Below, piece by piece: positions 495 to 18,510 of a stretch of DNA of 64,000 nucleotides. Source of the stretch: an uncultured Lachnospiraceae bacterium. Lineage in GTDB: Bacteria > Bacillota > Clostridia > Lachnospirales > Lachnospiraceae. The first letter of the stretch is position 1, and every line of letters begins with the position of its first letter. The notes below the pieces were generated by a model that was given only the letters and a program-made list of their open reading frames with translations, had not been told where the DNA came from and did no database searches. The stretch spans positions 14,140 to 78,139 of the forward strand of contig URUY01000014.1 in NCBI GenBank assembly GCA_900551115.1. The letters run 5' to 3'. Made by a program: the position numbers and the translations under genes.

Positions 495-508
495 ATTTTC
501 TCTCTCCT

Positions 509-1942: not shown

Positions 1943-2664
1943 TCTCCTGCTTCCTCCATCTTCAGTCCGATTCTTTTTGCCACAGCTATGTATGCCTCTT
2001 CCACGTTTCCCAAATCTCTCCTGAACCTGTCCTTATCCATCTTCTCATTGGTTTCCGCATCCCAAAGCCTGCATGTATCCGGGGATATCTCATCTGCCAA
2101 AATGATTTTTCCCTGAAAACGTCCGAATTCAATCTTAAAATCTATCAGCTTCAGGCCTGCTTTTAAAAACTCCGCTTTTAAAAGCTCATTTATCCGGAAT
2201 GCATATTCCTTAATGGTTTCCAATTCCTCTGCAGTGGCAAGCCCAAGCGCCTTTGCAAAATAGCTGTTGATAAGAGGGTCTGAAAGTTCGTCATTTTTAT
2301 AAGAAAACTCTATGGTTGGTTCAGAAAATGCAAGACCTTCCTCAACCCCCAGCCGCTTGGAAAAGCTTCCTGCCGCCGCGTTCCTCACAATTACCTCCAG
2401 CGGTACAATTGTCACTCTTTTCACAGCAGTCTCCCTGTCATTCAGCTCCTTGATAAAATGGGTGGGAATTCCGTTCTCCTGCAATATTTGAAACAAGTAA
2501 TTGGTCATGCGGTTATTGATTGCACCTTTTCCCGCAATCCTGCCTTTTTTCAGACCGTTAAAGGCCGTTGCATCATCCTTGTAGGAAACAATGAGTACCT
2601 CCTCATCTTCTGTTAAAAAAACCTTCTTTGCCTTGCCTTCATAAAGCTGTTCACCTTTTTTCAT
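1939..2664 (-). CDS. purC: phosphoribosylaminoimidazole-succinocarboxamide (SAICAR) synthase
   Basis: SAICAR synthetase family sequence (…YEGKAKKVF…VIVRN…). Start moved from the ORF-track start to internal ATG (MKKGEQLYEGKAKKV) at 2664, which has a GGATGAGGAG RBS 7 nt upstream. Confidence 0.85.
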   Translation of the reverse strand: MKKGEQLYEGKAKKVFLTEDEEVLIVSYKDDATAFNGLKKGRIAGKGAINNRMTNYLFQILQENGIPTHFIKELNDRETAVKRVTIVPLEVIVRNAAAGSFSKRLGVEEGLAFSEPTIEFSYKNDELSDPLINSYFAKALGLATAEELETIKEYAFRINELLKAEFLKAGLKLIDFKIEFGRFQGKIILADEISPDTCRLWDAETNEKMDKDRFRRDLGNVEEAYIAVAKRIGLKMEEAGE

Positions 2665-2704
2665 CTCTGACTCCTCATCCCTTTTTTTAATAATTCTTAA
2701 CAGC

Positions 2705-2760
2705 ACAAAAAAAGACAAAGGGTCTCTAAGAAAAATTTCTTAAAGACGCCTTTGCCTTTA
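2705..2760 (-). promoter_or_regulatory. leader attenuator: conserved P1 hairpin (AAAGGC-AAAGGC-GUCUUU, hexaloop A1/G4) overlapping a long intrinsic terminator + U7
   Basis: mRNA sense UAAAGGCAAAGGCGUCUUUAAGAAAUUUUUCUUAGAGACCCUUUGUCUUUUUUUG. The 5' 18 nt form a 6-bp stem with a hexaloop. An alternative >20-bp hairpin followed by U7 reuses the P1 3' arm. Confidence 0.6.
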
Positions 2761-2767
2761 CCCGAGT

Positions 2768-2796
2768 ATAGTACACCTATACGGTATAAATGTCAA
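2768..2796 (-). promoter_or_regulatory. sigma-A type promoter (TTGACA-17-TACTAT) driving the purC leader
   Basis: Minus-strand TTGACAtttataccgtataggtgTACTAT. Predicted TSS about 7 nt downstream, immediately before the conserved P1 hairpin. Confidence 0.6.
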
Positions 2797-2878
2797 TGTC
2801 TTTTCATGAATTTGCATCTTATTGCGGTATAAAATTTTCAGGTCATGATATATGCTTTGCTTTTACCTGTATTGCCTG

Positions 2879-4459
2879 TTACTTCCCGCTATCTCCATAA
2901 TTTGACAATACCCGTGCAGACGGGTCGTTTACATTGCATCCTTCCCATTCTTTATTTGGCATCCAGAAATCAATTATCATTTCCGCCTGTCCCGGATAGT
3001 ATTTTTCAAAAATTTCGCGATATGCCAGGGATTCTTTTGTAAATGGCCTTGCAAAATCATATTTCTTACATCCCTCCTCAAATTCCTCATCCGAGTACAG
3101 CTTCTCCGCATAGTCTTTCAAATAGTCCACCATAGAGTGTCCTACTGCATCCGAAAATGCCGCTTTTTCCCGATAAAGTATTTCATCAGGGAGATAATCA
3201 CCCTTGAACGCATATCTTAACAAATATTTTCCTTTCCCATAGATATTACGTTTTTTCTCCGGGTCGATTGCCATAACATACTTCACAAAATCCAAATCCC
3301 CGAACGGTACTCTTGCTTCCAGGGAATTTACAGATATGCACCTGTCAGCTCTCAGTACATCATACATATGCAATTCCCTGATTCTTTTACAGGCTTCCTT
3401 TTGAAAGGCTTCTGCGTCCGGTGCAAAATCAGTATATTTATATCCGAATAATTCATCTGAAATTTCACCGGTCAATATTACCCTGATATCCGTAGATTCG
3501 TGGATTGCCTTACAAATAAGATACATACCCATACTTGCCCGTATTGTTGTAATGTCATAGGTTCCGAGCAATGCAATGACTGTTTCCAGTGCTGAAAGCA
3601 CATCCTCTTTCGTGATGATAACCTCGGTATGCTCACTGCCGATATAGTCCGCTACCTGCTTTGCATACTTTAAATCAATGGCATCCTCGCTCATTCCGAT
3701 TGCAAATGTCTTAATCGGCTCTTTGCTCTTCTTTGCAGCAATCGCACATACCAGCGAGGAATCCAGTCCGCCGGAAAGTAAAAATCCAACCTTTGCATCT
3801 GCTACCAGTCTCTTTTCCACACCGGCAACAAGCTTATCATGTATGTTTTTGCATATCGTTTCCAAATCATCACAAATCACTTCATCTACCCGGGTCATAT
3901 CTCTGTAACAAATGAACTTTCCGGCTTTATAATAATGTCCCGGCGGGAACGGCATTACCTTATCCACTAGCTGCACCAGGTTTTTAGGCTCACTTGCAAA
4001 ACAGATGACTCCGTTCCTGTCATACCCGTAATACAAAGGCCTGATGCCAATCGGATCCCTTGCCGCAATGTATTCTCCGCTTTCACCATCATATACTATC
4101 AATGCATATTCTGCATCGAGCATGGAAAACATTTTTATTCCATACTCTCTGTACAGCGGTAACAGAATCTCGCAGTCGCTGTCGCTTTTAAATGAATAGC
4201 CCTTTTGCGTAAGCTGCTTTTTTAAGCCTTCAAATCCATAGATTTCTCCGTTACATACTATATAACTGCCATCAAGCTCAAACGGTTGCATTCCTTCCTC
4301 TGTAAGCCCCATAATAGCAAGTCTGTGAAAGCCTAAAAAGCCTTTGCCTGTATCGATAATCCTGGAATCATCAGGACCTCTTGAAATTGTTTTTTCAAAC
4401 CCCTTCTTAAATAACTCCAAAGTGGCGCCATGACCACAAAATCCCATAATAGAACACAT
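2879..4459 (-). CDS. asnB: asparagine synthase (glutamine-hydrolysing)
   Basis: 526 aa. N-terminal MCS… (Ntn amidotransferase Cys2). SGGLDSS PP-loop motif. ATG with GGAGGA RBS. Confidence 0.9.
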   Translation of the reverse strand: MCSIMGFCGHGATLELFKKGFEKTISRGPDDSRIIDTGKGFLGFHRLAIMGLTEEGMQPFELDGSYIVCNGEIYGFEGLKKQLTQKGYSFKSDSDCEILLPLYREYGIKMFSMLDAEYALIVYDGESGEYIAARDPIGIRPLYYGYDRNGVICFASEPKNLVQLVDKVMPFPPGHYYKAGKFICYRDMTRVDEVICDDLETICKNIHDKLVAGVEKRLVADAKVGFLLSGGLDSSLVCAIAAKKSKEPIKTFAIGMSEDAIDLKYAKQVADYIGSEHTEVIITKEDVLSALETVIALLGTYDITTIRASMGMYLICKAIHESTDIRVILTGEISDELFGYKYTDFAPDAEAFQKEACKRIRELHMYDVLRADRCISVNSLEARVPFGDLDFVKYVMAIDPEKKRNIYGKGKYLLRYAFKGDYLPDEILYREKAAFSDAVGHSMVDYLKDYAEKLYSDEEFEEGCKKYDFARPFTKESLAYREIFEKYYPGQAEMIIDFWMPNKEWEGCNVNDPSARVLSNYGDSGK

Positions 4460-4579
4460 GTCTTTATCCTCCGGCTTACATAATCAGGGCAAGTGCTGTT
4501 CTCACAATCCCACCATCCTGTACTCGCTGTCAGCGATTTCCTACACTGCTTCTCTTTTTTCAAACGCTTTTCTGTTTCA

Positions 4580-6310
4580 TTATTCCACATCCTGAAGGGC
4601 ATCATATCCCTCTTCACCGGTACGCACCTTCACAACATTTTCCACATCATATACAAATATCTTACCGTCTCCGATGTGTCCGGTATAAAGAACCTTCTTT
4701 GCCGTTTCGATTACCTTTCTTACAGGCACCTTACTTACAACAATATCAACCTGTACCTTAGGAAGAAGGTTTGTCTCTACAGGTGCGCCACGATAATATT
4801 CCGGCTTACCCTTCTGCACTCCGCAGCCAACTACATGGGATACCGTCATACCTGTAATTCCAAGTTCGCTCATGGATTTCTTCAGAGCCTCCAGCTTAGC
4901 TTCCTTACAGATAATCTGCACTTTGCTGAGTTTGGGAATACCTTCTGTTTTTTCAGTTTCTTTCTTCACAGGAACAGCCTCTGACATCGTATCTTCCTCA
5001 ACCGGATTAGAAACAGCAGCTTCCGCATCCTCAGTATATTTCTCCATAGAGATTACAAAATCAGGATAAGCCATATTTCCATGTTCACCGATATCCAAAC
5101 CGGCAATCTCTTCTTCTGCTGATACTCTGATTCCGACAGTCGCCTTGAGTGCCAGCCATACAAGGGAAGAAGTAATAAATGCAAACGCACCAACAGCTAC
5201 AATACCGACCAGTTCTACTAAAAGAAGCTCAGCTCCGCCACCGTAGAACAAACCATTTCTTGTTGAAAGAGTTGTAACCCCTTCTTTTGCAAACAAACCA
5301 ACACAAATTGTACCAAAGACGCCACAGCACAGATGTACGCTTGTCGCACCAACGGGATCATCGACTTTAATCCGGTCAAAGAACATTACTGCAAATACTA
5401 CGATAACACCTGCAATTGCGCCGATAATCAGCGATGCCTCTACGGTAACATATGCGCAGCTTCCGGTTATTCCTACCAGTCCGGCCAGACATCCGTTTAT
5501 TGTCATGCCTAAATCCGGCTTTCCGAGGAAAATCCATGCAACTGCCGTTGATGTAACAACTGCTGCGATAGCAGAGGTATTTGTTGTCATCAGAATATGC
5601 ATAACATCTGCCGGGTTCTGAAAGCTCATGGTAGAACCGGGGTTAAAGCCAAACCATCCAAGCCAAAGCACAAATAAACCAATTACTGCCAATGACATAT
5701 TATGTCCCGGAATCGCACGAGGCTTTCCGTCCTTACCATACTTACCGATACGAGGTCCTAAAATCAACGCTCCTGACAAAGCTGCCCATCCACCAAGTGA
5801 ATGCACTACCGTATCACCTGCAAAATCCATAAATCCAAGATTGGCAAGCCAGCCGCCGCCCCATACCCAGTGTCCTATAACCGGATAAATGAATAAGGTG
5901 AGTACAAAGGAAAATATAATAAAGGAAATATATTTTACTCTTTCTGCAACTGCACCGGATACAATTGTTGCTGCAGTCCCGCAGAATACTAACTGAAAGA
6001 AGAATTTTCCCCAAAACGGTACATTGGAAGTCAATGTATTGTCATAAAAGGAATGGTCTTCTGTTCCGAGAATAAACAGGTGCTGTGTTCCTATAAATGG
6101 ATTATCACCGCCAAACATCAGTCCCCATCCCAGTAATATGAATCCCAAAGATGATACCGCAAATACAATAAAATTCTTTGACAGAATGTTTACCGTATTT
6201 TTTGACCTTGCCATACCTGCTTCTACGGAGGCAAAACCGAGATTCATGAAAAACACCAGGATTGCTGCAAGAAATACCCACACTGTATCGATAATCATTT
6301 CTACTGTCAT
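4580..6310 (-). CDS. amtB-glnK: ammonium transporter AmtB fused in frame to a C-terminal PII (GlnK/GlnB) domain
   Basis: N-terminal ~430 aa are an 11-TM Amt family sequence (…GGWLANLGFMDFAGDTVVH…). A ~50 aa acidic linker follows. The C-terminal ~105 aa are a PII fold (GITGMTVSHVVGCGVQKGKPEYYRGAP…IGDGKIFVYDVENVVKVRTGEEG). No stop separates the two. The ORF track begins at TTG 6319; the likely real ATG is at 6310 with a GGAAAGAGG RBS. Confidence 0.8.
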   Translation of the reverse strand: MTVEMIIDTVWVFLAAILVFFMNLGFASVEAGMARSKNTVNILSKNFIVFAVSSLGFILLGWGLMFGGDNPFIGTQHLFILGTEDHSFYDNTLTSNVPFWGKFFFQLVFCGTAATIVSGAVAERVKYISFIIFSFVLTLFIYPVIGHWVWGGGWLANLGFMDFAGDTVVHSLGGWAALSGALILGPRIGKYGKDGKPRAIPGHNMSLAVIGLFVLWLGWFGFNPGSTMSFQNPADVMHILMTTNTSAIAAVVTSTAVAWIFLGKPDLGMTINGCLAGLVGITGSCAYVTVEASLIIGAIAGVIVVFAVMFFDRIKVDDPVGATSVHLCCGVFGTICVGLFAKEGVTTLSTRNGLFYGGGAELLLVELVGIVAVGAFAFITSSLVWLALKATVGIRVSAEEEIAGLDIGEHGNMAYPDFVISMEKYTEDAEAAVSNPVEEDTMSEAVPVKKETEKTEGIPKLSKVQIICKEAKLEALKKSMSELGITGMTVSHVVGCGVQKGKPEYYRGAPVETNLLPKVQVDIVVSKVPVRKVIETAKKVLYTGHIGDGKIFVYDVENVVKVRTGEEGYDALQDVE

Positions 6311-6340
6311 ATTAATCAACCTCTTTCCTGTAATAAAATT

Positions 6341-8437
6341 TTATTTTACACCAAACAAAATTTCTCCGTAGGTCGGGAACGGCCAGTAGTCTGCTGCCGT
6401 AATTACCTCTGCCTCATCCGCTACAGCTCTAAGCTCCTGCATTTTCACAAGAACCTTGTCTCTGATGGCAGCTGCTTCTTCCAAAATACCATTCGTCTCC
6501 TTCAGGCTCATAACTGCCTTTTCCAATTCCGATATCTTTGTATCAATCTGCTCGGCAATTACGGAAAGCTTTGAAACCATTTTCTTTTCATAGGTACATG
6601 TAATGTCACCTGAAAGCGACTTCTTTGCAACAGCCACATTTGCCAGTTCTAAAGCATAGCCCTCTACAGCAGGCAGAATCTGTTTTCTTGCCATATCCAC
6701 CATTGTATTTGCTTCAATGGTGACTGACTTACAATAGTTCTCAAGCATAATATCACATCTTGATTTAAGCTCTGCTTTGGTAAATACCTTATGTTCTGTG
6801 AGCATCTTCACATTCTTCTCATCCAATAGATGCGGCATACAGTCTACCGTGGTACGATAATTCAACAAGCCTCTCTTCGTTGTGGCTTCCGTAATCCATG
6901 ACTCGTCATATCCGTTTCCGTTAAAGAGAATATGCTTATGGTCTTTGATGGTTTTACGAATCATTTCATGAAGCGCCGTTTCAAAGTCTTCCACACCTTC
7001 CAATCTGTCCGCATATACCTTCAGGCTTTCAGCAACTGCACTGTTTAACATAATATTTGCACAGGAAATGCTGTTGGATGAGCCAAGCATTCTGAACTCA
7101 AACTTATTTCCCGTAAAGGCAAACGGTGAAGTACGGTTACGGTCTGTATTATCTCTTGCAAACTTGGGTAATACATCAACTCCCAGCTTCATGGTAGTTG
7201 TTTCTGTACCCTTATAAGGTTCGTTCTTTTCAATGGCTTCCAGAATTGCAGTAAGCTCATCCCCAAGGAAAATGGATACCACTGCCGGAGGCGCCTCATT
7301 TGCTCCGAGTCTATGGTCATTACCTGCTGTTGCAACAGACAGTCTGAGTAAATCCTGATAAGTATCAACTGCCTTAATGACTGCACAAAGGAATAATAAG
7401 AACTGTGCATTTTCATAAGGTGTTTCGCCGGGTGAAAGAAGGTTTACACCTGCATCCGTTGCAATCGACCAGTTATTGTGCTTGCCGCTTCCGTTTACAC
7501 CTGCAAAAGGTTTTTCATGTAAGAGGCATACCAGACCATGCTTTGCAGCAATCTTCTGCATGATTTCCATTGTCAGCTGATTATGGTCTGCTGCAATGTT
7601 AGTAGTTGCATAAATCGGTGCCAGCTCATGCTGTGCAGGAGCAACCTCGTTATGCTCTGTTTTTGCCAGCACGCCGAGCTTCCACAGCTCCTCGTTTAAT
7701 TCTTCCATATATGCTGCCACTCTGGGCTTAATTACACCAAAGTAATGATCATCCAGTTCCTGTCCTTTGGGTGGCTTTGCACCAAAGAGCGTACGTCCTG
7801 TGAACATTAAATCCTTACGCTTTTCATACATTGCTTTGTCTACAAGGAAGTACTCCTGCTCAGGTCCTACCGATGTTCGGACACATTTCACTTCATCATT
7901 TCCAAATAAATGAAGGATTCGCAATGCCTGACGATTCAAAGCCTCCATAGAACGAAGTAACGGCGTTTTCTTATCCAATGCCTCTCCGCCATAAGAACAA
8001 AATGCAGTAGGGATACATAAGGTTTTACCTTTGATAAACGCATAAGAGGTAGGGTCCCATGCGGTATAGCCTCTTGCTTCAAAGGTAGCTCTTAACCCGC
8101 CCGAAGGGAATGAGGATGCATCCGGTTCTCCCTGAATCAATTCCTTACCGGAAAACTCCATTAATACTCCGCCATCCGGTGACGGAGAGATAAAGCTGTC
8201 ATGCTTTTCTGCCGTAATGCCGGTAAGCGGCTGAAACCAATGTGTATAATGTGTTGCGCCCTTATCAACTGCCCAGTTTTTCATTGCCTCTGCAACAGCA
8301 TTTGCTACAGATAAATCAAGGGTCGCTCCTTCATCAATCGTCTTTCTTAATGACTGATATACCTTTGCTGAAAGCTTTGCCTTCATTACTCTGTCATCAA
8401 ACACCAGGCATCCAAAATAATCATCAATTTTTTTCAT
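6341..8437 (-). CDS. glnN: glutamine synthetase type III
   Basis: ~700 aa GSIII-family sequence. Start set at internal ATG (MKKIDDYF) with AAGGAGG RBS 7 nt upstream. Only 30 nt separate its stop from amtB, so likely a glnN-amtB/glnK-asnB operon. Confidence 0.85.
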
Positions 8438-8443
8438 AACAAT

Positions 8444-8570
8444 CCTCCTTGTTTTTGCGAAGCAAAAATCCGAACCCCATGTGAGGAGAGGATTTGCCTC
8501 CTTGTTTTTGCGAAGCAAAAATCCGAACTCCCACGTGAGGAGAGGATTTGCCTCCTTGTTTTTGACTATC
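8444..8570 (-). repeat. tandem direct repeat, 2.3 copies of a ~53-nt module in the glnN 5'UTR
   Basis: CCTCCTTGTTTTTGCGAAGCAAAAATCCGAAC…GTGAGGAGAGGATTTGC repeated at 8444, 8497 and partially at 8551, with ~97% identity. In RNA sense each copy carries AAGGAGG paired to CCUCUCCU plus a UUUUUGC-UUC-GCAAAAA hairpin. Confidence 0.8.
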
Positions 8571-8571
8571 T

Positions 8572-8624
8572 ATAAGAGAAAAGCGCCTTTAATGTTTAAA
8601 AACATTAAAGACGCCATTGCCTTC
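8572..8624 (-). promoter_or_regulatory. leader attenuator upstream of glnN: P1 hairpin (GAAGGC-AAUGGC-GUCUUU) overlapping a 15-bp intrinsic terminator
   Basis: mRNA sense GAAGGCAAUGGCGUCUUUAAUGUUUUUAAACAUUAAAGGCGCUUUUCUCUU. Terminator stem GCGUCUUUAAUGUUU/AAACAUUAAAGGCGC followed by a U-tract. Confidence 0.6.
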
Positions 8625-8631
8625 TTCACTT

Positions 8632-10012
<1,381 letters not shown>

Positions 10013-10061
10013 TTATTTTGGGGTATTTTTTCTCCCTTGATTGTCAAGCTTTTATGGTAAT

Positions 10062-10116
10062 AACAAAAAGGGCAATGGGGCTCTAAGAATAAATTCTTAA
10101 AGACGCCATTGCCTTT
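10062..10116 (-). promoter_or_regulatory. leader attenuator upstream of gdhA: P1 hairpin (AAAGGC-AAUGGC-GUCUUU) overlapping an intrinsic terminator + U5
   Basis: mRNA sense AAAGGCAAUGGCGUCUUUAAGAAUUUAUUCUUAGAGCCCCAUUGCCCUUUUUGUU. The GGCAAUGG/CCAUUGCC and CUUUAAGAA/UUCUUAGAG stems covary relative to the other copies. Confidence 0.65.
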
Positions 10117-10125
10117 ATGTTGTCG

Positions 10126-10154
10126 ATAATACACCTAACAAAAATCATTGTCAA
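10126..10154 (-). promoter_or_regulatory. sigma-A type promoter (TTGACA-17-TATTAT) for the gdhA leader
   Basis: Minus-strand TTGACAatgatttttgttaggtgTATTAT. TSS predicted 2-3 nt before P1. Confidence 0.65.
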
Positions 10155-10188
10155 TATGTTTTTTTAGTTTTTCTTCCCGGTTTTTAAT

Positions 10189-11667
10189 CTAATGATATCC
10201 CATAAGGCTAAAATCTACTTCCTTTGCACATTCCCTTCCCTGATGAATCGCCTTAACCACAAGAGATTGCCCGGTGTGCATGTCTCCGGCAGTATATATT
10301 TTCTCTACGGATGTCTGAAAGCTTCCCACAGCAGTCTTCACATTGCTTCTTTCATCCAGTTCAAAACCAAATGCATCTGCTGTATACTTCTGAGACCCCA
10401 AAAAACCTGCTGCAATCAGTACAAGCTGTGCGTTAAGCGTTTGCTCACTGTTTGGAATCTCTTTCATAACCATACGTCCGCTGTCCGGGTCCTTCTCCCA
10501 TGCAAGCTTTACAAGCTTTACGGCAGACAGCTTTCCCTTCTCATCCTTTACGAATTCTTTTACTGTAGACTCGTAAATACGCGGGTCGTGTCCAAACAGA
10601 CAAATTGCCTCTTCCTGACCGTAATCCGTTTTACAAACCTTAGGCCATTCCGGCCAGGGATTGGTTTCGCTTCTTTGCTCCGATGCTTTCGGCATCATCT
10701 CTATCTGGGTAACAGACCTTGCACCCAGACGGATGGAGGTTCCGACACAGTCATTACCCGTGTCACCGCCACCGATAATAACGACATCTTTATCCTGTAC
10801 CGATACATATGCTTTATCTTCAAACCCGCTGTCCAACAGACTCTTTGTTACTCCTTTCAAAAAATCCACTGCAAAATAAATTCCCTTTGCATCCCTTCCT
10901 GCCACATTAATATCTCTCGGATTGGAAGCACCGCAGCAGAAAACTACCCGGTCAAATTCATCAAACAGCTTCTTTGCATCCACATCCTTGCCCACATCCA
11001 CATTGGTAATAAATGTGATTCCTTCTTCCTCCATAATCTTCACTTTTCGTTCAATGATATGCTTTTCAAGCTTCATATTGGGAATGCCATACATCAGCAG
11101 GCCGCCGACTCTGTCACTGCGTTCATATACACAAACCGTATGGCCACGTTTATTTAACTGATCAGCCACAGCAAGCCCTGCGGGGCCGCTTCCCACAACT
11201 GCCACTCTTTTCCCTGTGCGTACTTTGGGCGGCTTTGGTCCTGCCAGCCCGTTTTCATATGCATACTCAATAATTGCATACTCATTTTCCTTTGTGGCTA
11301 CCGGTTTCCCGAACAGCCCGCAGGTACATGCATTTTCACAAAGAGCGGGACATACTCTCGATGTGAATTCCGGAAAATTATTTGTCTTTTTAAGTCTGTT
11401 ATAGGCACTTTCCCAGTTTCCGGTATATACCAAATCATTCCATTCAGGCACAAGGTTATGAAGCGGACAACCGGACGTCATCCCGGCTATCGTCATTCCT
11501 GACTGGCAGAACGGTACGCCGCAATCCATGCACCTTGCACCCTGCTTTTGTTGTTCCTTTCTCGTAAGATGTTCATGGAATTCATTAAAGTGCTTTATTC
11601 TTTTTTCCGCATCTTCCGCCTTTGATACTATTCTCTCATATTCCAAAAATCCTGTTGGCTTACCCAT
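10189..11667 (-). CDS. gltD: glutamate synthase (NADPH) small subunit
   Basis: 492 aa with N-terminal Fe-S cysteine cluster (CMDCGVPFC…CP…C) and FAD/NAD(P) Rossmann motif (VAVVGSGPAG). Confidence 0.9.
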   Translation of the reverse strand: MGKPTGFLEYERIVSKAEDAEKRIKHFNEFHEHLTRKEQQKQGARCMDCGVPFCQSGMTIAGMTSGCPLHNLVPEWNDLVYTGNWESAYNRLKKTNNFPEFTSRVCPALCENACTCGLFGKPVATKENEYAIIEYAYENGLAGPKPPKVRTGKRVAVVGSGPAGLAVADQLNKRGHTVCVYERSDRVGGLLMYGIPNMKLEKHIIERKVKIMEEEGITFITNVDVGKDVDAKKLFDEFDRVVFCCGASNPRDINVAGRDAKGIYFAVDFLKGVTKSLLDSGFEDKAYVSVQDKDVVIIGGGDTGNDCVGTSIRLGARSVTQIEMMPKASEQRSETNPWPEWPKVCKTDYGQEEAICLFGHDPRIYESTVKEFVKDEKGKLSAVKLVKLAWEKDPDSGRMVMKEIPNSEQTLNAQLVLIAAGFLGSQKYTADAFGFELDERSNVKTAVGSFQTSVEKIYTAGDMHTGQSLVVKAIHQGRECAKEVDFSLMGYH

Positions 11668-11686
11668 TTATATACCTCCAATCCGC

Positions 11687-14600
11687 TTATGAATGCACAC
11701 TCGAATAAAATGCCTCTATCCGGGCTTCTTCTGCGCTTAAGCCTTTTTCCTCCAACATGGTAATGCACCTCTGCATCCTTTCATAATCATGAGGAATAAT
11801 TTTCTTAAACTTCGGCAGATAGGCTTCAAAGCCTTCTAATATCTTCTTACCCTTCCTTGAGCCGGTTGCCGCCGTATGTTCCTCGATCATATTTTTAAGC
11901 TCAGCGGCATCTCTTTTTTCTGTTACTTCGCTGATTGAAACCATCTCTTTATTTACACGCATATAAAGATCGTTGTTGGCATCCAGAACATAAGCAACGC
12001 CGCCACTCATGCCTGCCGCAAAATTCTTACCGGTATCCCCCAGCACGGCAACGCGGCCTCCGGTCATGTATTCGCACCCATGATCGCCCACACCTTCCAC
12101 GACTGCTATTGCCCCTGAGTTACGCACACAGAAACGTTCTCCTGCGATTCCGCATACAAAAGCCTTTCCGCTGGTTGCTCCGTAGAGAGCCACATTACCG
12201 ATAATAATATTCTCATCCGGCACAAAGCTGCTTTCTTTGGGTGGGTATACAATGAGCTTTCCTCCTGAAAGTCCCTTTCCGAAATAATCATTGGAATCCC
12301 CGGAAAGCTCCAGGGTAAGCCCCTTGGGAATAAAGGCGCCAAAGCTCTGTCCGCCCCCGCCCTTGCAAATGATTTTATAGGTATCCTCTGCAAGCGTATC
12401 ATCAAAACGCTTTGTAATCTCAGAACCTAAAATAGTACCAAAAGCCCTGTCAGTATTCTTTACGCTTATTTCAATACTCTTTGCTTCTCCTGTTTTCAGA
12501 CTCTCCTTTAATTTTTTCAAAAGTACCTTTTCATCCAATGTTTTAGCAAGCTCAAAATCATATGCCTTTTTCTTATCAAAGGTTACATGTTCCTGTGCAT
12601 AGGGATTATCTAAAATTTTGGACAAATCAAGTCTTTTCGTTCCTTTCGGAAGTGTTTCCCTGCATTTGAGCAAATCACTGCGTCCTACCAGCTCATCTAC
12701 AGAATGCACGCCTAACTTAGCCATATATTCCCTAAGCTCTTCTGCAATAAATCTCATGAAATTTATGACATATTCCGGTTTTCCCTTAAATCTCTTTCTA
12801 AGCTCCGGATTCTGCGTTGCCACTCCCACAGGACATGTATCCAGATTGCAGACACGCATCATAACACATCCCATAGTTACAAGAGGCGCAGTTGCAAAGC
12901 CGAACTCCTCCGCTCCGAGCATGGCTGCAATTGCCACATCACGTCCCGTCATCAGCTTACCATCCGTCTCTATGCGTACTTTATTTCTAAGCCCATTCTG
13001 AATTAAGGTCTGATGTGTTTCTGCCAGACCCAGTTCCCAGGGTAAGCCGGCATTATGAATAGAGCTTTTGGGCGCCGCACCGGTACCTCCGTCATAGCCT
13101 GAAATAAGAACCACCTGCGCCCCTGCTTTTGCAACACCTGCCGCTACGGTCCCGACGCCTGCCTCCGACACCAGTTTTACACTGATTTCTGCATCTTTAT
13201 TGGAATTCTTTAAGTCAAAAATAAGCTGCGCCAAATCCTCAATGGAATAAATGTCATGATGCGGCGGCGGTGAAATAAGCCCTACGCCTGCCGTAGAGTG
13301 CCTTGTTTTTGCAATCCACGGATAAACCTTTCCCGCAGGTAAATGTCCGCCTTCGCCCGGCTTTGCACCCTGCGCCATCTTTATTTGTATTTCTTTTGCA
13401 CTTACCAGGTATCTGCTGGTAACGCCAAAACGTCCCGAAGCCACCTGCTTAATTGCGGAGCATTTATCAATACTTTCTCCTGCCGTTACCATTCGGTCAA
13501 GATCCTCTCCGCCTTCGCCGCTGTTCGATTTTCCATGCAGTCTGTTCATGGCAATCGCCAGCGTTTCATGTGCTTCTTTAGAAATTGAGCCATAGGACAT
13601 TGCGCCTGTTTTAAATCTTGTGACGATACTGTCTACACTTTCTATCTCCTCTAAAGGAAGCGGCTTTTCAGAATACTGAAGCTCTAAAAGCCCGCGGATA
13701 TTTCTGACACTGTCCTCATTATCAAGCATGGACGTATACTGCTTAAACATATGATAATCACCGCGCATGGTTGACTGCTGCAGCATGTGTATGGTGGCAG
13801 GATTATATAAATGCTCTTCTGCCCCGCCTCTTAGCTTATGCTGTCCCGGACTGTCCAGGGTCAAATCCGTAGCAAGGCCCAACGGGTCAAAGGCCTTGGA
13901 ATGCAGCATATCAACTTCTTTTTCTATGTCCTTTAATGTGATTCCGCCTATCCGGCATACCGTATTCGTAAAATACTTATTTATCACAGCATCATCTATA
14001 CCCAGTGCCTCAAAAATCTGTGAGCCCTGATAGGATTGAATCGTGGAGATTCCCATCTTAGATGCAATTTTAACAATTCCGTGTAAAATCGCACTATTAT
14101 AATCATCCACAGCCGCATAATAATCCTTATCCAGCATTCCGTTTTCAATCAACTCTTTAACAGATTCCAATGCCAAATACGGATTTACTGCACAGGCGCC
14201 ATATCCCAAAAGCGTTGCAAAATCATGTACCTCTCTCGGTTCTGCGGACTCTATAATCAGTGCCACACTGGTTCTCTTCTTTGTACGGACCAAATGCCTT
14301 TGCAGGGCCGATACTGCAAGCAGGGAAGGAATCGCCACATGATTTTCATCCACGCCTCTGTCAGACAGGATAATAATATTCGCGCCTTCTCTGTATACTC
14401 TGTCAACCTCCACACAGAGCCTGTCAATCGCACGTTCCAAACCGGTATTCTTATAATACAGAATCGGAACTACCGCTACCTGAAATCCCTCTCTTTTCAT
14501 ATGCTTGATTTTCAGCATATCCGTATTGGTAAGAATGGGATTATTAACCTTTAACACATTACAGTTTTCCTGCTTATCCTCTAACAGATTTCCGTCTGTC

Positions 14601-16228
14601 CCAATATATACGCTTGTAGAAGTAACTACCTCTTCCCTGATTGCATCAATCGGCGGATTGGTTACCTGTGCAAACATTTGCTTAAAGTAGTGAGATAATT
14701 GATGATGTGTCTTAGACAGCACCGGGATTGGTGAATCTACTCCCATTGCCGCAATAGCTTCACTGCCGCTGCGCGCCATGGGCAGTATGCTTGACTTTAA
14801 TTCATCAAAGGTATATCCAAAGGCCTTTTGCATTCTCTGCCTTTCCTCGTTCGTATACTCATAAACTTTCACATTGGGTATTTTAAGCTCCTTAAGCGTT
14901 ACCAGATTGGAATCAAGCCACTCCCCATACGGTCTTTTTAAAGCAAAAGCTTCCTTAATGGTGTCATCATCAAGCAGCTTTCCCTTTACGGTATCCACAA
15001 GAAGCATTTTCCCCGGTCTTAATCTGTCCTTCTTAATAATCCTTGCATTATCTATCGGCAGAACACCCACCTCTGAGGAAAGAATCAGCTGGCCATCATC
15101 CGTAATGTAATAACGCGAAGGGCGCAGTCCGTTTCTGTCAAGCACGGCCCCCATAATATCCCCATCCGAAAACAATATAGAGGCAGGACCATCCCACGGC
15201 TCCATCATAGTTGCATAATACTGATAAAAATCTTTTTTATGCTGGCTCATCGTTTTATTGTTTGCCCAGGGCTCCGGAATGGTAATCATAACTGCCAACG
15301 GAAGCTCCATCCCGCTCATTACCAAAAACTCAAGGGTATTATCAAGCATGGCAGAATCCGACCCCTGTTCATTCACAACAGGCAAAACCTTATGAAACTC
15401 GCGGCTTAAATGTTCCGATTCCATATTTTCTTCTCTTGCCAGCATTTTATCTACATTTCCGCGAATTGTATTAATTTCTCCATTGTGAACAATAAATCTG
15501 TTTGGATGCGCTCTTTCCCAGCTTGGGTTCGTATTGGTAGAAAATCTGGAATGGACAATTGCGATTGCCGATTTGTATTCCCCGCTCTGCAAATCAGGGA
15601 AAAATGTCCGCAGCTGTCCTACTAAAAACATTCCCTTATATACAATCGTTCTGCTGCTTAAAGACACAACATAGGTATTGTCCGTACTCTGCTCAAAAAC
15701 ACGTCTTGCAATATAGAGCTTTCTATCAAAATCAAGTCCAATCTCTACATCGGAGGGTTTCCTGACAAATGCCTGCATAATATAGGGCATGCATTCTACT
15801 GCCCTTTTTCCCAAAACTTCCGGTACGCACGGAACTTTTCTCCATCCGATAAATTCCATTCCCTCTTTTTCCACAATAATCTCAAACATCTTTTTTGCCT
15901 GATTTCGCTTCAGCTCATTCTGCGGAAAAAAGAACATACCTACCCCATATTCTCTTTCCTTCCCAAGCTTCAGGTTTAAAGGCTCTGCCTGTTTTACAAA
16001 AAAGCTGTGGCATATCTGTACGAGAATACCCACGCCGTCTCCTGTTTTGCCTTCTGCATCCTTGCCGGCTCTATGCTCAAGATTTTCTACAATCATCAAT
16101 GCCTTTTCTACCGTATCATGGGTTTTTTCTCCGTTAATATTAACAACTGCCCCAATACCGCAGTTATCATGTTCAAACTTTTCACTGTACAACGGTGCCC
16201 TTTGCTTTTCAGATTTTGCATCAAACAT
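11687..16228 (-). CDS. gltB: glutamate synthase large subunit
   Basis: 1513 aa. N-terminal Ntn amidotransferase Cys (…HDNCGIG…), FMN-binding and GXGXG domains. Immediately upstream of gltD. Confidence 0.95.
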   Translation of the reverse strand: MFDAKSEKQRAPLYSEKFEHDNCGIGAVVNINGEKTHDTVEKALMIVENLEHRAGKDAEGKTGDGVGILVQICHSFFVKQAEPLNLKLGKEREYGVGMFFFPQNELKRNQAKKMFEIIVEKEGMEFIGWRKVPCVPEVLGKRAVECMPYIMQAFVRKPSDVEIGLDFDRKLYIARRVFEQSTDNTYVVSLSSRTIVYKGMFLVGQLRTFFPDLQSGEYKSAIAIVHSRFSTNTNPSWERAHPNRFIVHNGEINTIRGNVDKMLAREENMESEHLSREFHKVLPVVNEQGSDSAMLDNTLEFLVMSGMELPLAVMITIPEPWANNKTMSQHKKDFYQYYATMMEPWDGPASILFSDGDIMGAVLDRNGLRPSRYYITDDGQLILSSEVGVLPIDNARIIKKDRLRPGKMLLVDTVKGKLLDDDTIKEAFALKRPYGEWLDSNLVTLKELKIPNVKVYEYTNEERQRMQKAFGYTFDELKSSILPMARSGSEAIAAMGVDSPIPVLSKTHHQLSHYFKQMFAQVTNPPIDAIREEVVTSTSVYIGTDGNLLEDKQENCNVLKVNNPILTNTDMLKIKHMKREGFQVAVVPILYYKNTGLERAIDRLCVEVDRVYREGANIIILSDRGVDENHVAIPSLLAVSALQRHLVRTKKRTSVALIIESAEPREVHDFATLLGYGACAVNPYLALESVKELIENGMLDKDYYAAVDDYNSAILHGIVKIASKMGISTIQSYQGSQIFEALGIDDAVINKYFTNTVCRIGGITLKDIEKEVDMLHSKAFDPLGLATDLTLDSPGQHKLRGGAEEHLYNPATIHMLQQSTMRGDYHMFKQYTSMLDNEDSVRNIRGLLELQYSEKPLPLEEIESVDSIVTRFKTGAMSYGSISKEAHETLAIAMNRLHGKSNSGEGGEDLDRMVTAGESIDKCSAIKQVASGRFGVTSRYLVSAKEIQIKMAQGAKPGEGGHLPAGKVYPWIAKTRHSTAGVGLISPPPHHDIYSIEDLAQLIFDLKNSNKDAEISVKLVSEAGVGTVAAGVAKAGAQVVLISGYDGGTGAAPKSSIHNAGLPWELGLAETHQTLIQNGLRNKVRIETDGKLMTGRDVAIAAMLGAEEFGFATAPLVTMGCVMMRVCNLDTCPVGVATQNPELRKRFKGKPEYVINFMRFIAEELREYMAKLGVHSVDELVGRSDLLKCRETLPKGTKRLDLSKILDNPYAQEHVTFDKKKAYDFELAKTLDEKVLLKKLKESLKTGEAKSIEISVKNTDRAFGTILGSEITKRFDDTLAEDTYKIICKGGGGQSFGAFIPKGLTLELSGDSNDYFGKGLSGGKLIVYPPKESSFVPDENIIIGNVALYGATSGKAFVCGIAGERFCVRNSGAIAVVEGVGDHGCEYMTGGRVAVLGDTGKNFAAGMSGGVAYVLDANNDLYMRVNKEMVSISEVTEKRDAAELKNMIEEHTAATGSRKGKKILEGFEAYLPKFKKIIPHDYERMQRCITMLEEKGLSAEEARIEAFYSSVHS

Positions 16229-16249
16229 TTTCCAACACTCCTTGCTTTT

Positions 16250-16316
16250 TTTCTGTTAAAAAAGGCAAAGAAATCTCTAATGCACATAATTGCATGAAAG
16301 ACGTCTTTGCCTTTTA
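16250..16316 (-). promoter_or_regulatory. second (promoter-distal) attenuator in the gltB leader: P1 hairpin (AAAGGC-AAAGAC-GUCUUU) overlapping a long terminator + U6
   Basis: mRNA sense AAAAGGCAAAGACGUCUUUCAUGCAAUUAUGUGCAUUAGAGAUUUCUUUGCCUUUUUUAA. Confidence 0.6.
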
Positions 16317-16344
16317 ATATTCAGATACCTTACATATTCCCTTT

Positions 16345-16393
16345 GAAACAAAAGGCACCTTTAAGAGCTTCCCCTTAAAGACGCCATTGCCTT
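16345..16393 (-). promoter_or_regulatory. first (promoter-proximal) attenuator in the gltB leader: P1 hairpin (AAGGC-AAUGGC-GUCUU) overlapping a 12-bp terminator + UUUUGUUU
   Basis: mRNA sense UUAAGGCAAUGGCGUCUUUAAGGGGAAGCUCUUAAAGGUGCCUUUUGUUU. Confidence 0.65.
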
Positions 16394-16403
16394 AATGGTA
16401 TGA

Positions 16404-16432
16404 ATTTTATATCCAGGATTACCAATTGTCAA
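16404..16432 (-). promoter_or_regulatory. sigma-A type promoter (TTGACA-17-TAAAAT) for gltBD
   Basis: Minus-strand TTGACAattggtaatcctggataTAAAAT. TSS predicted ~3 nt before P1. Confidence 0.65.
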
Positions 16433-16480
16433 TATTTATTTTTAAATTTAATAATTTTTATTTTTATCTTCTAAAGCTTT

Positions 16481-16516
16481 TTCCCAAAATTCTTCCAAAA
16501 TTTCCTCCAAAATTTT
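16481..16516. repeat. three tandem 12-nt repeats (TTCCCAAAATTC / TTCCAAAATTTC / CTCCAAAATTTT) in the divergent gltB-glnA intergenic region
   Basis: Read directly. Period ~12 nt (one helical turn plus). Lies between the two divergent -35 boxes. Confidence 0.7.
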
Positions 16517-16538
16517 CGGAATTTCATGGCAAATTAGC

Positions 16539-16567
16539 TTGACATTCTGGTAACTTGCGTTTAGAAT
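16539..16567 (+). promoter_or_regulatory. sigma-A type promoter (TTGACA-17-TAGAAT) for glnA-nitR
   Basis: Plus-strand TTGACAttctggtaacttgcgttTAGAAT. Confidence 0.6.
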
Positions 16568-16574
16568 CTTTTGT

Positions 16575-16631
16575 GAGCAAAGGCGTTCATTTAATTCAGA
16601 AACCATATTTCTGTTACAATGGACGTCTTTA
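16575..16631 (+). promoter_or_regulatory. glnA leader with divergent P1-like hairpin (GAGC-AAAGGC-GUUC, A1/G4 hexaloop) plus a second degenerate motif copy (CAAUGGACGUCUUUA)
   Basis: GCAAAGGCGU core and downstream CGUCUUUA are shared with the four minus-strand leaders. A CAGAAA/UUUCUG hairpin lies between them. No strong terminator seen. Confidence 0.45.
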
Positions 16632-16680
16632 TTCGTTCCGTAGCCAATGCCAATAAATATACGAGAAAGCAGGTGCCGCA

Positions 16681-17892
16681 ATGAAATATACCCAAAATGA
16701 AGTAATGCAGTTTGTGGAAGAAGAAGATGTAAAATTCATCAGACTGGCATTTTGTGATGTTTTTGGAAAACAGAAAAATATATCCATCATGCCCGATGAG
16801 CTAAACAGAGCCTTTGAACAGGGAATTGCCATCGATGCATGGTCTATTGCCGGGTTTGACAGCCATTTGCACTCAGACTTGTTTTTATATCCTGACCCTT
16901 CCACTCTTGTTATCCTGCCGTGGCGTCCGGAACATGGCCGTGTGGTAAGAATGTTCTGCGATATCAAATGGCCGGACGGCAGCGTTTTTCTCTGCGATAC
17001 CAGACAGCTTCTCAAAAAAGCCATTGCCGATGCCGCAGAAAAAGGTGTCTTTTTTCAATTTGGTTCAGAAATGGAATTCTATCTTTTTAACAGGGATGAA
17101 CTGGGCAATCCCACTGCCATCCCTTACGACCAGGCAGAATATATGGACATTGCTCCGGACGATAAAGGTGAGAATATCAGACGTGAGATATGCCTTACCT
17201 TAGAGCAGATGGGTATATCGCCTGAAAGCTCCCATCATGAAGAGGGACCCGGACAAAATGAAATTGATTTTAGATATTCCGACCCTTTATCCGCAGCAGA
17301 CAATGCCGTTACTTTTGCTGCCGTTGTAAAAACCGTTGCAAACCGCAACGGAATTTATGCCTGCTTCAATCCGAAACCACTGGAAAATGCACCGGGAAAC
17401 GGAATGCATATTAACTTCTCCATCAAAGATGATACTGATGCAGAGGCGTTAAATCATTGCCTTGCCGGTATATTAAAATATATTCCTGATATGACACTTT
17501 ATCTAAATCGCTGCATAGATTCTTATAAACGCCTGGGAAATAACAAAGCGCCCGGCTTTATAACCTGGTCTGCCGAAAACCGCTCCCAGCTGGTTCGTAT
17601 CCCTGCCGCCTCCGGTATATACAAACGGGCAGAGCTTCGTTCTCCCGACCCTATGGCTAATCCCTACATTGCTTATACACTTTTGATTTATGCGGGACTG
17701 CTTGGCATAGAGGAGAAGCTTCCGCTTCCTCCCGCAGCAGACATAAATCTGTATACTGCTCCGAAAGATATTTTAAATCAGTATACCCACCTTCCCAAAA
17801 CCTTGGAAGAGGCAAAGACAATAGCCAAAAACAGCCTGTTCATCAATTCCATCCTGCCTGCGCAGATTACCGAAGCATATTGCAGGATATAA
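16681..17892 (+). CDS. glnA: glutamine synthetase family protein (short type-I-like)
   Basis: 403 aa with GS beta-grasp N-domain and catalytic motifs (…GNGMHINFS…, …ENRSQLVRIP…). Confidence 0.8.
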   Translation: MKYTQNEVMQFVEEEDVKFIRLAFCDVFGKQKNISIMPDELNRAFEQGIAIDAWSIAGFDSHLHSDLFLYPDPSTLVILPWRPEHGRVVRMFCDIKWPDGSVFLCDTRQLLKKAIADAAEKGVFFQFGSEMEFYLFNRDELGNPTAIPYDQAEYMDIAPDDKGENIRREICLTLEQMGISPESSHHEEGPGQNEIDFRYSDPLSAADNAVTFAAVVKTVANRNGIYACFNPKPLENAPGNGMHINFSIKDDTDAEALNHCLAGILKYIPDMTLYLNRCIDSYKRLGNNKAPGFITWSAENRSQLVRIPAASGIYKRAELRSPDPMANPYIAYTLLIYAGLLGIEEKLPLPPAADINLYTAPKDILNQYTHLPKTLEEAKTIAKNSLFINSILPAQITEAYCRI

Positions 17893-17916
17893 AAAATCTG
17901 ATGAACGGAAGGAGGT

Positions 17917-18510
17917 ATGCCCATGCCTTTTAAAGAATATATATACAGTGTTTTGATAGTATCATCATCCGAAACCTTTAATACTTCCTTTACGGCACTG
18001 CTGCCCCAGAAAGATTACGCCCCTGTAGATATTGTCCAAAGCATAAATCACGCAAGGCGGAAAACAGCAGAAAGAGCTTATGACCTTGTCATAATAAACA
18101 CGCCGCTGCCGGACGATTTCGGCAGAAAATTTGCTATTGATATCTGCGAAAACAGGCATACGGTTGCCGTACTTTTTGTAAAAAACGATATATATGATGA
18201 AACCTATGCAAGGGTTCTGGAGCATGGTGTTTTAACCTTGCGCAAGCCGACCTCCGCTTCCATTATAAATCAGGCGCTTGATTGGATGCGTGCAATCAGC
18301 AAACGGCTTGGAAAGCTTGAAAAAAAGACCCTGACATTAGAAGAAAAAATGTCCGAAATCCGAATTGTCAACCGTGCAAAGTGGGCGCTTATCGAATCCT
18401 GTAATATGACAGAAACCGACGCCCACAGGTACATAGAAAAGCAGGCCATGGATCGCTGCCTTACAAAAGGAGAAATCGCGGAAGGCATCCTGCAGACTTA
18501 TAAATCATAG
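17917..18510 (+). CDS. ANTAR-domain RNA-binding antiterminator with atypical receiver domain (NitR/AmiR-like)
   Basis: C-terminal ANTAR signature (…EIRIVNRAKWALIESCNMTETDAHRYIEKQAMDRCLTKGEIAEGIL). N-terminal CheY-like fold in which the phospho-acceptor position reads LVIIN (Asn, not Asp). glnA followed by an ANTAR regulator is the classical clostridial glnA-nitR arrangement. Confidence 0.8.
   Translation: MPMPFKEYIYSVLIVSSSETFNTSFTALLPQKDYAPVDIVQSINHARRKTAERAYDLVIINTPLPDDFGRKFAIDICENRHTVAVLFVKNDIYDETYARVLEHGVLTLRKPTSASIINQALDWMRAISKRLGKLEKKTLTLEEKMSEIRIVNRAKWALIESCNMTETDAHRYIEKQAMDRCLTKGEIAEGILQTYKS

Follow-up and report, generated by a model that had tools for sequence, protein, structure and literature searches.

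The window analysed here is a 64-kb stretch of DNA (64,000 nucleotides; assembly GCA_900551115.1, contig URUY01000014.1, positions 14,140 to 78,139) from an uncultured Lachnospiraceae bacterium, in which genes of nitrogen metabolism carry in their leaders a short RNA hairpin with a six-nucleotide loop (hereafter P1) that overlaps an intrinsic terminator. The minus strand encodes the purC-purB-purA operon (3..2718; purC 1939-2718, purB 509-1942, purA from 485 to past the window start), the glnN-amtB/glnK-asnB operon (2879..8437; glnN 6341-8437, an amtB-glnK fusion 4580-6319, asnB 2879-4459), gdhA (8642..10000) and the gltBD operon (10189..16228; gltB 11687-16228, gltD 10189-11667). The plus strand carries glnA (16681..17892), encoding a C-terminally short, GSI-alpha-like glutamine synthetase (GS), and, co-transcribed with it, nitR (17917..18510), encoding a NitR-like regulator that joins a degenerate receiver domain to an ANTAR domain (52.6 bits) and is our proposed antiterminator. 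Pfam confirmed the gene identities assigned by a first-pass annotation that had worked from the letters alone: purB, purC, asnB, the amtB-glnK fusion, type III GS (glnN), gdhA, gltD, gltB, a type I-like GS and a REC+ANTAR protein. We consider it probable, at roughly three chances in four, that these genes belong to a NitR-dependent transcription-attenuation regulon operating on a single ANTAR-type hexaloop hairpin.

Leader hairpins of the nitrogen genes

A pattern scan of the window for the 18-nt module AAAGGCAWWGRCGTCTTT, allowing up to two mismatches, returned five matches against 0.04 expected, all on the minus strand and located upstream of purC, glnN and gdhA (one each) and of gltB (two). 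These copies, which follow the consensus AAAGGC-AANGRC-GUCUUU, are termed class I; a single class II hairpin, UGAGC-AAAGGC-GUUCA, lies upstream of glnA-nitR. The first-pass annotation had ascribed one shared layout to five transcription units, glnA-nitR among them. The module itself is real and present in five copies, but two of these stand together in the gltB leader and none in that of glnA-nitR, where the AAAGGC...GUCUUU sequence that had been described gives way to the same hexaloop on a different stem. A covariance model of the class I 18-mer (R1) scored the five window copies at 28.7-31.9 bits, with the runner-up at 13.4 bits or below, and a model built from both classes (R2) scored the six window hairpins at 25-30 bits, with the runner-up at 13. 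Rfam 15 produced no match at gathering score in the whole window, and only chance-level matches (E >= 0.2) at permissive thresholds between positions 2500 and 17000.

In the purC-purB-purA leader, the class I attenuator (2703..2759, minus strand) comprises P1 at 2759-2742 (AAAGGC-AAAGGC-GUCUUU), a terminator extending to 2711 and a U tract at 2710-2703; its R1 score is 31.9 bits, and its terminator folds at -27.3 kcal/mol versus -3.5 for P1. This hairpin begins 8 nt past the -10 hexamer of a sigma-A-type promoter (TTGACA-17-TACTAT, 2768..2796, minus strand). The gdhA leader has the same strand and order, with a promoter at 10126..10154 (TTGACA-17-TATTAT) and an attenuator at 10063..10116 (P1 10116-10099, terminator to 10071). 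The gltBD leader, downstream of a promoter at 16404..16432 (TTGACA-17-TAAAAT, minus strand), contains tandem attenuators, the second copy 80 nt downstream of the first: attenuator 1 (16346..16394, minus strand) has P1 at 16394-16377 (UAAGGC-AAUGGC-GUCUUU), a 14-bp terminator to 16354 and the tail UUUUGUUU, and attenuator 2 (16255..16314, minus strand) has P1 at 16314-16297 (AAAGGC-AAAGAC-GUCUUU), a terminator to 16263 and the tail UUUUUAAC. On the plus strand, the glnA-nitR promoter (TTGACA-17-TAGAAT, 16539..16567) is followed by the class II element (16573..16643; R2 score 26.1 bits), with P1 at 16574-16589 and a long hairpin in which positions 16579-16591 pair with 16618-16630.

A sigma-A promoter had been claimed for every unit, and the claim stands for purC, gdhA, gltB and glnA (near-consensus, TTGACA-17-TAnnnT) but not for glnN, for which our promoter search of the window leaders detected none. 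The glnN copy (8574..8624, minus strand; P1 8624-8607, GAAGGC-AAUGGC-GUCUUU; 15-bp terminator to 8582; tail UUUCUCUU) is an intercistronic terminator/read-through site between gdhA and glnN, beginning 18 nt past the gdhA stop codon (8642). The true start of glnN is the ATG at 8437, as opposed to the TTG at 8518 given in the list of open reading frames (ORFs). From the attenuator to this start, the 5' untranslated region is spanned by a 54-nt tandem repeat (8444-8564, minus strand; 2.3 copies, 97% identical), each unit of which contains AAGGAGG and a hairpin (region fold z = -4.1).

Alternative folds of the leader RNA

The long hairpin of each copy folds at -21 to -29 kcal/mol (z -3.8 to -7.6; 66-76-nt stretches, flanks included) and is followed on its 3' side by a U-rich tract. 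In every one of the five class I copies the 8 nt past the terminator include at least 5 U, a terminator-finding tool flags the glnN, first gltB and purC copies, and the class I copies are intrinsic terminators as commonly defined, that is, a G+C-containing stem-loop followed by a U-rich tract. Taken alone, the P1 18-mer forms a 6-bp stem with a hexaloop at -3.5 to -3.9 kcal/mol, versus -16.7 to -27.3 kcal/mol for the terminator fold (module start to terminator end), whose 5' arm consists of the P1 loop and 3' arm and, in three copies, of the whole 18-mer. With P1 enforced, no more than -5 to -9 kcal/mol remains for the fold of the rest, and no stable stem is left against the U tract. Because the loop and 3' arm are used by both structures, and given the computed energies (P1 -3.5 versus -17 to -27 kcal/mol), the two folds are mutually exclusive, as the first-pass annotation had proposed. 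The terminator is far stronger than P1, and termination is therefore the default state, from which read-through requires a holder of P1.

Conservation and targets of the class I element

A genome scan with the ANTAR protein gathered 80 loci from Clostridia, comprising metagenome-assembled genomes (MAGs) and isolates, at 51-75% identity (1.05 Mb in all; loci and contigs are cited by L numbers where needed). They include Lachnospiraceae, Oscillospiraceae, Acutalibacteraceae, Christensenellales, Cellulosilyticum and [Eubacterium] hominis. R1 finds about 80 copies in these loci, and a terminator filter retains 66 non-identical class I elements, of which 50 lie 5' of glnN, 10 of gdhA, 3 of gltB, 2 of purC and 1 of asnB. 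Seen from the genes, an element is present at glnN in 40 of 42 cases, at gdhA in 8 of 8 and at gltB in 1 of 1 (in addition to the window's own gltB leader); the two glnN exceptions, L074 and L012, carry divergent versions in which the pairing is still kept. The asnB and amtB genes mostly lie within glnN operons and have no element of their own. The gdhA-element-glnN arrangement of the window recurs in L003, L024, L030, L042, L051 and L058, and tandem pairs spaced 65-90 nt apart, each copy with its own terminator, are common among relatives.

Across the 66 elements, positions 2, 4, 5, 6, 8, 10, 13, 14, 15 and 17 are invariant and the loop follows the pattern A-A-N-G-R-N (A7 in 65/66, A8 and G10 in 66/66). 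Positions 10-18 pair with the 3' arm of the terminator, position 10 in 66/66 and the lowest, position 14, in 55/66. That 3' arm wobbles, with U14 opposite G in 24 elements and A in 31, and G10 opposite U in 17 and C in 49. Since the terminator 5' arm is invariant while its 3' arm wobbles, the 5' arm must be a recognition element beyond its part in terminator pairing. Outside the module, the terminator stem takes 40 distinct sequences in 64 elements, always complementary, and its duplex energy is -2.9 kcal/mol with its own partner versus -0.2 with a swapped one, which bears out the earlier observation that the variable terminator stems covary. Within the class I module, covariation is confined to the outermost pair (A-U, G-C, U-A, G.U).

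Long-form terminators are near-perfect palindromes, as at L068 8563 (+)/8610 (-) and L002 6926 (+)/6977 (-). The opposite strand of such palindromes also bears the full motif and a terminator, giving spurious 'glnA leader' matches; in principle, transcription arriving from either side could be terminated.

Scanning roughly 10^12 bases of metagenome contigs for exact matches to the 16-nt pattern AAGGCAANGGCGTCTTT gave 131 matches on 120 contigs (0.84 Mb fetched), 72 of them with a terminator and 59 without. The readable ORFs downstream of the terminator matches are glnN, gdhA, purC, amtB, an asnB-like amidotransferase gene, gltS (Na+/glutamate symporter), an ilvE-like class IV aminotransferase gene, nadE (NAD synthase) and pyrG (CTP synthase); purA is an additional target in L021, and the lone exception is a weak match, L135, that is probably due to chance. 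The 59 matches lacking a terminator served as a negative control and lie nearly all in unrelated contigs, at the chance level for 16 nt; three matches fail the terminator filter yet stand upstream of glnN (L085, L118 and the second L174 copy). A nitR gene falls inside the fetched stretch in 7 of the 62 terminator contigs versus none of the 58 others. In the covariance-model search suggested with the first reading of the locus, nearly every element lies 5' of a nitrogen gene, in 1.05 Mb of NitR loci as in 0.84 Mb of motif-fetched contigs. The regulon is coherent, its members serving ammonium or glutamate uptake or the spending of glutamine, aspartate or ammonia nitrogen.

This distribution bears on whether the elements might be unregulated leader terminators, or 5' hairpins stabilising mRNA, unrelated to nitrogen control. 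Hairpins at the 5' terminus stabilise Firmicute mRNAs, and the long hairpins are excellent terminators by themselves. A strong constitutive promoter followed by an equally constitutive strong terminator would, however, silence essential genes such as glnN, gdhA, purC and pyrG, and the restriction to nitrogen genes across families, together with the invariance of the 5' arm, requires a specific trans-acting reader; we regard this explanation as highly improbable.

A second stem class in the glnA-nitR operon

Among relatives, glnA-nitR is as a rule the tail of a seven-gene operon (e.g. L040 3720-10585, plus strand) with the order GATase_2-like, Glu_synthase/Fer4, Fer4, Pyr_redox_2, GXGXG, GS-like and nitR, referred to here as the split-GOGAT (glutamate synthase) operon. 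The window organism has glnA-nitR alone and a fused gltBD, without the split-GOGAT operon. In L040 the operon leader consists of a consensus promoter, then (A)UGAGC-AAAGGC-GUUCA(U), a variable hairpin, ...GAACGCCUUU and a U tract. Class II elements precede the split-GOGAT operon in 61 cases, glnA directly in 4, gltB in 1 and pyrG in 8 (one lineage). Since class II stands on the split-GOGAT/glnA-nitR operon, the regulator's own operon is a target. The contrary view, that glnA-nitR is not a target, had drawn on class I matches in 5 of 68 orthologous glnA leaders, all of them mirror images of palindromes, and was overturned by the class II hairpin of L040.

The loop and both inner pairs (C-G, G.U) are common to the two classes; from class I to class II, the next three pairs show compensatory swaps: G-C to A-U, A-U to G-C and A-U to U-A. 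In the joint alignment 97.8% of cells are paired versus 78.3% in shuffles, and 4 of 6 pairs change on both sides, so that the compensatory stem changes expected of a functional RNA element by the first-pass annotation are indeed found; the joint covariation score of 0.632 (0.259 in shuffles) was reached in none of 500 shuffles, and slid controls attained at most 0.22. A generic search of about 2 Mb, open to every 5-bp stem that closes an AANGNN loop and overlaps a terminator, yielded 283 cases: 154 AAGGC/GUCUU, 63 UGAGC/GUUCA, about 30 one-step variants and, for the rest, singletons.

A third stem, AGAGC-AAAGGC-GUUCU with a terminator, was seen at L057 694 (+), L067 2086 (+), L051 17035 (-) and L114 10682 (-), in two loci directly past the nitR stop codon. 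The apical stems of class II elements often keep CAGA...UCUG, with the remainder variable, a lineage-specific conservation seen in the Lachnospiraceae loci L016 3211, L040 3630 and L050 3474 and at 16596-16615 of the window.

The swaps between classes also speak to a reading of the module as DNA, namely an 18-bp inverted repeat at +1 to +18 serving as operator for a dimeric repressor, with the terminators incidental. In favour of this reading, the module is found directly 3' of near-consensus promoters, and AAAGNC-N6-GNCTTT is an imperfect inverted repeat. Three observations led us to reject it: about half of the class I copies are promoterless (second tandem copies and those past the gdhA stop codon), the element always lies in sense orientation with a terminator always downstream, and the invariant G5.U14 pair renders the half-sites asymmetric as DNA. 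The compensatory swaps, moreover, preserve pairing and not sequence, and we give the operator very little credence.

A single ANTAR-type hexaloop

Seed hairpins of ANTAR substrates in Ramesh 2012 (PMC3369931) include eutP P1 (AAACAC-AAUGGC-GUGUUU), eutG P1 (GUGUAC-AAUGGC-GUAUAC), eutA P2 (UUAAGC-AAAGGC-GCUUAA), eutS P2 (GAGC-AAAGAA-GCUC) and nasF P2 (GGAU-AAAGGC-GUCC). The window loops AAAGGC, AAUGGC and AAAGAC, with their closing C-G pair, are those of this seed alignment; for AAAGGC and AAUGGC the identity extends to eutS P1. In keeping with the first-pass annotation's view of A1 and G4 as the hallmark of ANTAR substrates, loop (A1, A2, G4) and C-G pair are the same as in the experimentally defined substrates of EutV, NasR and AmiR. 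Both classes have the A1/G4 hexaloop, a covarying stem of at least 3 bp and a 3' side that overlaps the terminator 5' arm, as classical ANTAR sites do; the pair of hairpins joined by a short linker (P1 and P2) is absent.

All characterised ANTAR antiterminators use two hairpins, and isolated matches to the Ramesh 2012 model are scattered over asnB, amtB and glnA leaders of related Clostridia (Table S2; PMC3369931), as might be expected if a second hexaloop, P2 or an upstream P1, of a classical dual-hairpin substrate had been overlooked. In 79 class I and 53 class II copies, however, the hairpin starts 8-10 nt past the -10 hexamer, which leaves no space for an upstream hairpin. Apical loops measure 3-10 nt, and A1 and G4 occur together in none of the 16 apical hexaloops. 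Neither the generic search of about 2 Mb nor inspection by eye of the window copies revealed a partner hairpin class, and the tandem copies stand 65-90 nt apart with a terminator each. The first-pass annotation, too, had seen no convincing P2, and its judgement agrees with the apical-loop statistics and the generic search; an overlooked second hexaloop appears very unlikely. Walshe 2022 (PMC8934654) found that one EutV dimer contacts a single hexaloop and redefined the minimal motif accordingly, and by sequence the present hairpins carry the features of that minimal definition (a single hexaloop with G4).

NitR and its GS-like neighbour

NitR (197 aa) has a C-terminal ANTAR domain (PF03861, 52.6 bits against a cut-off of 27.3) preceded by a coiled-coil linker, and its family profile matches Rv1626, AmiR, NasR and EutV over the ANTAR segment. 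At least 120 homologues at 59% identity or more are among the protein-search matches listed. RNA contacts of EutV that are kept in NitR are K143 (R149), K147 (R153), K149 (K155) and the hydrophobic plug M172 (M178). In 79 of 80 homologues the residue at the phospho-acceptor site is Asn61, and Ser/Ala stand where the acidic pair would be; NitR is not phosphorylatable because its receiver domain lacks the Asp pocket. No histidine kinase gene was found next to nitR, whose neighbours encode RqcH-like and MurJ/SpoVB-like proteins. The Asp pocket and cognate kinase that characterise two-component ANTAR response regulators are accordingly both missing from this system. L028 and L034, contigs of fecal_MAG_129, present two NitR homologues (57% identity to the query) in one MAG, which may be paralogues or reflect strain heterogeneity.

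The GS-like protein (403 aa) is a C-terminally short GSI-alpha type that scores 325 bits with the NCBIfam GlnA model, against a cut-off of 429. Its nearest solved relatives are Bacillus-type GS, presumably including the GS that was crystallised with TnrA or GlnR. The gene lies directly upstream of nitR in 68 loci. NitR activity is probably set by a partner or ligand reporting glutamine or nitrogen status, and from this adjacency we infer that the GS-like protein is the best candidate partner, in the manner of AmiC-AmiR, NasS-NasT and Bacillus GS-TnrA/GlnR; it may serve as sensor partner of NitR instead of, or besides, acting as an enzyme.

Proposed mechanism and its standing

In the mechanism that we propose, strong sigma-A promoters would fire constitutively, and the first 18 nt of RNA would fold into the weak 6-bp P1; for about half of the copies, P1 would instead arise within a leader or intercistronically. 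If the regulator is absent, the 25-40 nt that follow, complementary to the P1 loop and 3' arm and often to all of P1, would displace it to form a 14-23-bp terminator hairpin followed by U residues, and transcription would stop some 45-60 nt from its start. Active NitR, binding as an ANTAR-domain dimer to the hexaloop and closing pairs, would clamp P1, whereupon only a short apical hairpin, apart from the U tract, could form and RNA polymerase would enter the operon. Where copies stand in tandem, as they do before gltB and in many glnN leaders, the response would be sharper, and the class II element in the glnA-nitR leader would provide positive autoregulation. Observed here are the motif with its conservation and covariation, the mutual exclusion of hairpin and terminator, the target genes, the pseudo-receiver and the nitR linkage; NitR as the binder, antitermination on binding, the direction of the nitrogen signal and the GS partner are inferred. 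We advance more tentatively, as a possibility that we ourselves hold to be doubtful, the joint proposition that a single 5'-terminal hexaloop suffices for co-transcriptional antitermination and that the pseudo-receiver protein NitR is set by direct contact with the GS-like protein, the two forming a glutamine-sensing pair.

Several points weigh against NitR-dependent attenuation on a single hairpin. In vivo, EutV requires both hairpins, and Walshe 2022 (PMC8934654) expected single hexaloops only where a transcribing polymerase sets no time limit; here the time window is short, at about 15-25 nt of synthesis, and a NitR-bound family would be a co-transcriptional exception to that expectation. 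EutV residues that contact the RNA backbone are changed in NitR (R168 to E174, R175 to C181, R177 to S/T183), and these changes may relate to the invariance of the stems. The stem covariation lies mostly between the two classes and represents few evolutionary events. In the window, the glnA element has a weak U tract, UUUAUUCGUU, and a marginal terminator; orthologous class II elements have clear U tracts. Two of the four AGAGC/GUUCU hairpins stand upstream of genes for the ATP-synthase a-subunit and for a LysR-type regulator, neither with an obvious nitrogen role. The case for NitR is one of linkage between genes and of identity of the motif; its loci were selected for nitR, so that co-occurrence there is by construction, and in the unbiased, motif-selected set nitR is nearby in only 7 of 62 contigs, which are short.

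The last of these points would also fit a reader of P1 other than NitR, either a different RNA-binding protein or a miniature riboswitch responding to a small ligand, for instance glutamine. NitR binding is a prediction, and the sequence invariance of the stems is unusual for ANTAR targets, in which the loop positions alone are conserved. Yet loop and closing pair are identical to those of validated ANTAR substrates, nitR is the sole consistently linked regulator gene and the class II hairpin stands on the nitR operon itself. There is no Rfam family match, an 18-nt hairpin with one conserved hexaloop has no obvious ligand pocket, and complementarity accounts for the conserved nucleotides outside P1. 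We judge a different binder unlikely, and find the first-pass annotation's reading, single-hairpin ANTAR-type antitermination, supported.

Significance

Few output classes of bacterial signalling are as poorly understood as the ANTAR regulators, and Walshe 2022 (PMC8934654) raised the question whether single-hexaloop sites act anywhere. If NitR acts as proposed, the definition of ANTAR targets as dual hexaloops would be joined by a natural, widespread, co-transcriptional single-hexaloop example, one that contradicts the two-hairpin requirement of EutV, NasR and AmiR. The 18-nt site, occurring in two stem classes, makes the proposal directly testable.

The element and its targets offer a concrete cis-element and nitrogen regulon for Lachnospiraceae, Oscillospiraceae, Christensenellales and relatives, which are major gut and rumen taxa and for which, to our knowledge, no GlnR/TnrA or NtrBC paradigm is available. 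The GS-like protein and the pseudo-receiver ANTAR protein are a possible new sensing module; if so, a GS-ANTAR pair would govern GS, GOGAT, glutamate dehydrogenase, AmtB, AsnB, PurA/PurC, PyrG and NadE in many gut and rumen Clostridia. With both 18-nt consensus sequences to hand, nitrogen-regulated operons could be annotated in metagenomes.

Comparison with known systems

The closest parallels lie with EutV and the eut leaders of Enterococcus faecalis (PMC3369931, PMC8934654). The hexaloop AA(A/U/C)G(G/A)N closed by C-G is shared, with AAACAC-AAUGGC-GUGUUU in eutP P1 against AAAGGC-AAUGGC-GUCUUU here, the 3' arm is in both cases common to an intrinsic terminator, and both ANTAR proteins have an N-terminal receiver-like domain and a coiled-coil linker. 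In contrast to the two hairpins of eut, there is one hairpin per terminator here, at the extreme 5' end of the RNA and without a recruitment hairpin; the stems come in two discrete, sequence-invariant classes; the targets belong to central nitrogen assimilation and not ethanolamine use; and the NitR receiver has neither phospho-acceptor nor cognate kinase. In that last respect NitR resembles AmiR, whose receiver-like domain is unphosphorylated. AmiR-AmiC of Pseudomonas aeruginosa and NasT-NasS each comprise an ANTAR protein sequestered by a ligand-binding partner encoded next to it, although the partner proposed here from adjacency would be GS-like and would not have a periplasmic-binding-protein fold.

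For Clostridium saccharobutylicum (glnA-nitR, gltAB), NitR is reported (Stutz et al. 2007, as cited in PMC6316151 and PMC4676874) to be an ANTAR protein that, on nitrogen limitation, induces the GS/GOGAT genes by antitermination, through a mechanism called 'not fully understood'; in the literature covered, its RNA target is undefined. The likeness to the present system is one of gene order, an ANTAR gene directly 3' of glnA; here, in contrast, the main regulated GS is of type III (glnN), and the synthesis of purines, pyrimidines, NAD and asparagine also falls within the regulon. C. thermocellum has a homologous cluster with a glnA-nitR pair, Clo1313_2030-2036, which is the same split-GOGAT operon as in L040. 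Predicted ANTAR nitrogen regulons in Desulfotomaculum, Carboxydothermus, Desulforudis and Pelobacter (Ramesh 2012, Fig. 9 and Table S2; PMC3369931) and GnfR of Geobacter (PMC2995071) likewise place attenuators on P-II, amtB, GS and GOGAT genes and an ANTAR gene next to glnA. The regulons predicted by Ramesh 2012 were defined as dual hairpins, however, and most of the present family escapes that model, whose reported matches in comparable gut Clostridia are no more than scattered.

Outside the ANTAR proteins, the ribonucleic antiterminator (RAT) bound by BglG, SacY and LicT works alike, as one hairpin that a protein stabilises and that shares its 3' part with the 5' arm of a terminator, but its binder has an unrelated fold (CAT-PRD), and the 29-30-nt RAT contains internal loops, unlike a 6-bp stem with a hexaloop. 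A possible logic for the GS-NitR pair is that of Bacillus subtilis, where a feedback-inhibited type I-alpha GS acts as glutamine sensor by binding TnrA or GlnR; the Bacillus regulator binds DNA, and the interaction suggested here is drawn from gene order.

A 2025 review of RNA-binding antiterminators covers only dual-hairpin ANTAR targets and does not include NitR. The literature that we searched, with subscription literature outside its scope, held no match to the 14-nt motif core and no description of a single-hexaloop NitR site. The general idea of ANTAR-mediated nitrogen control is known; with respect to the accessible literature, the single-hairpin element, its two classes, the regulon and the pseudo-receiver regulator are new.

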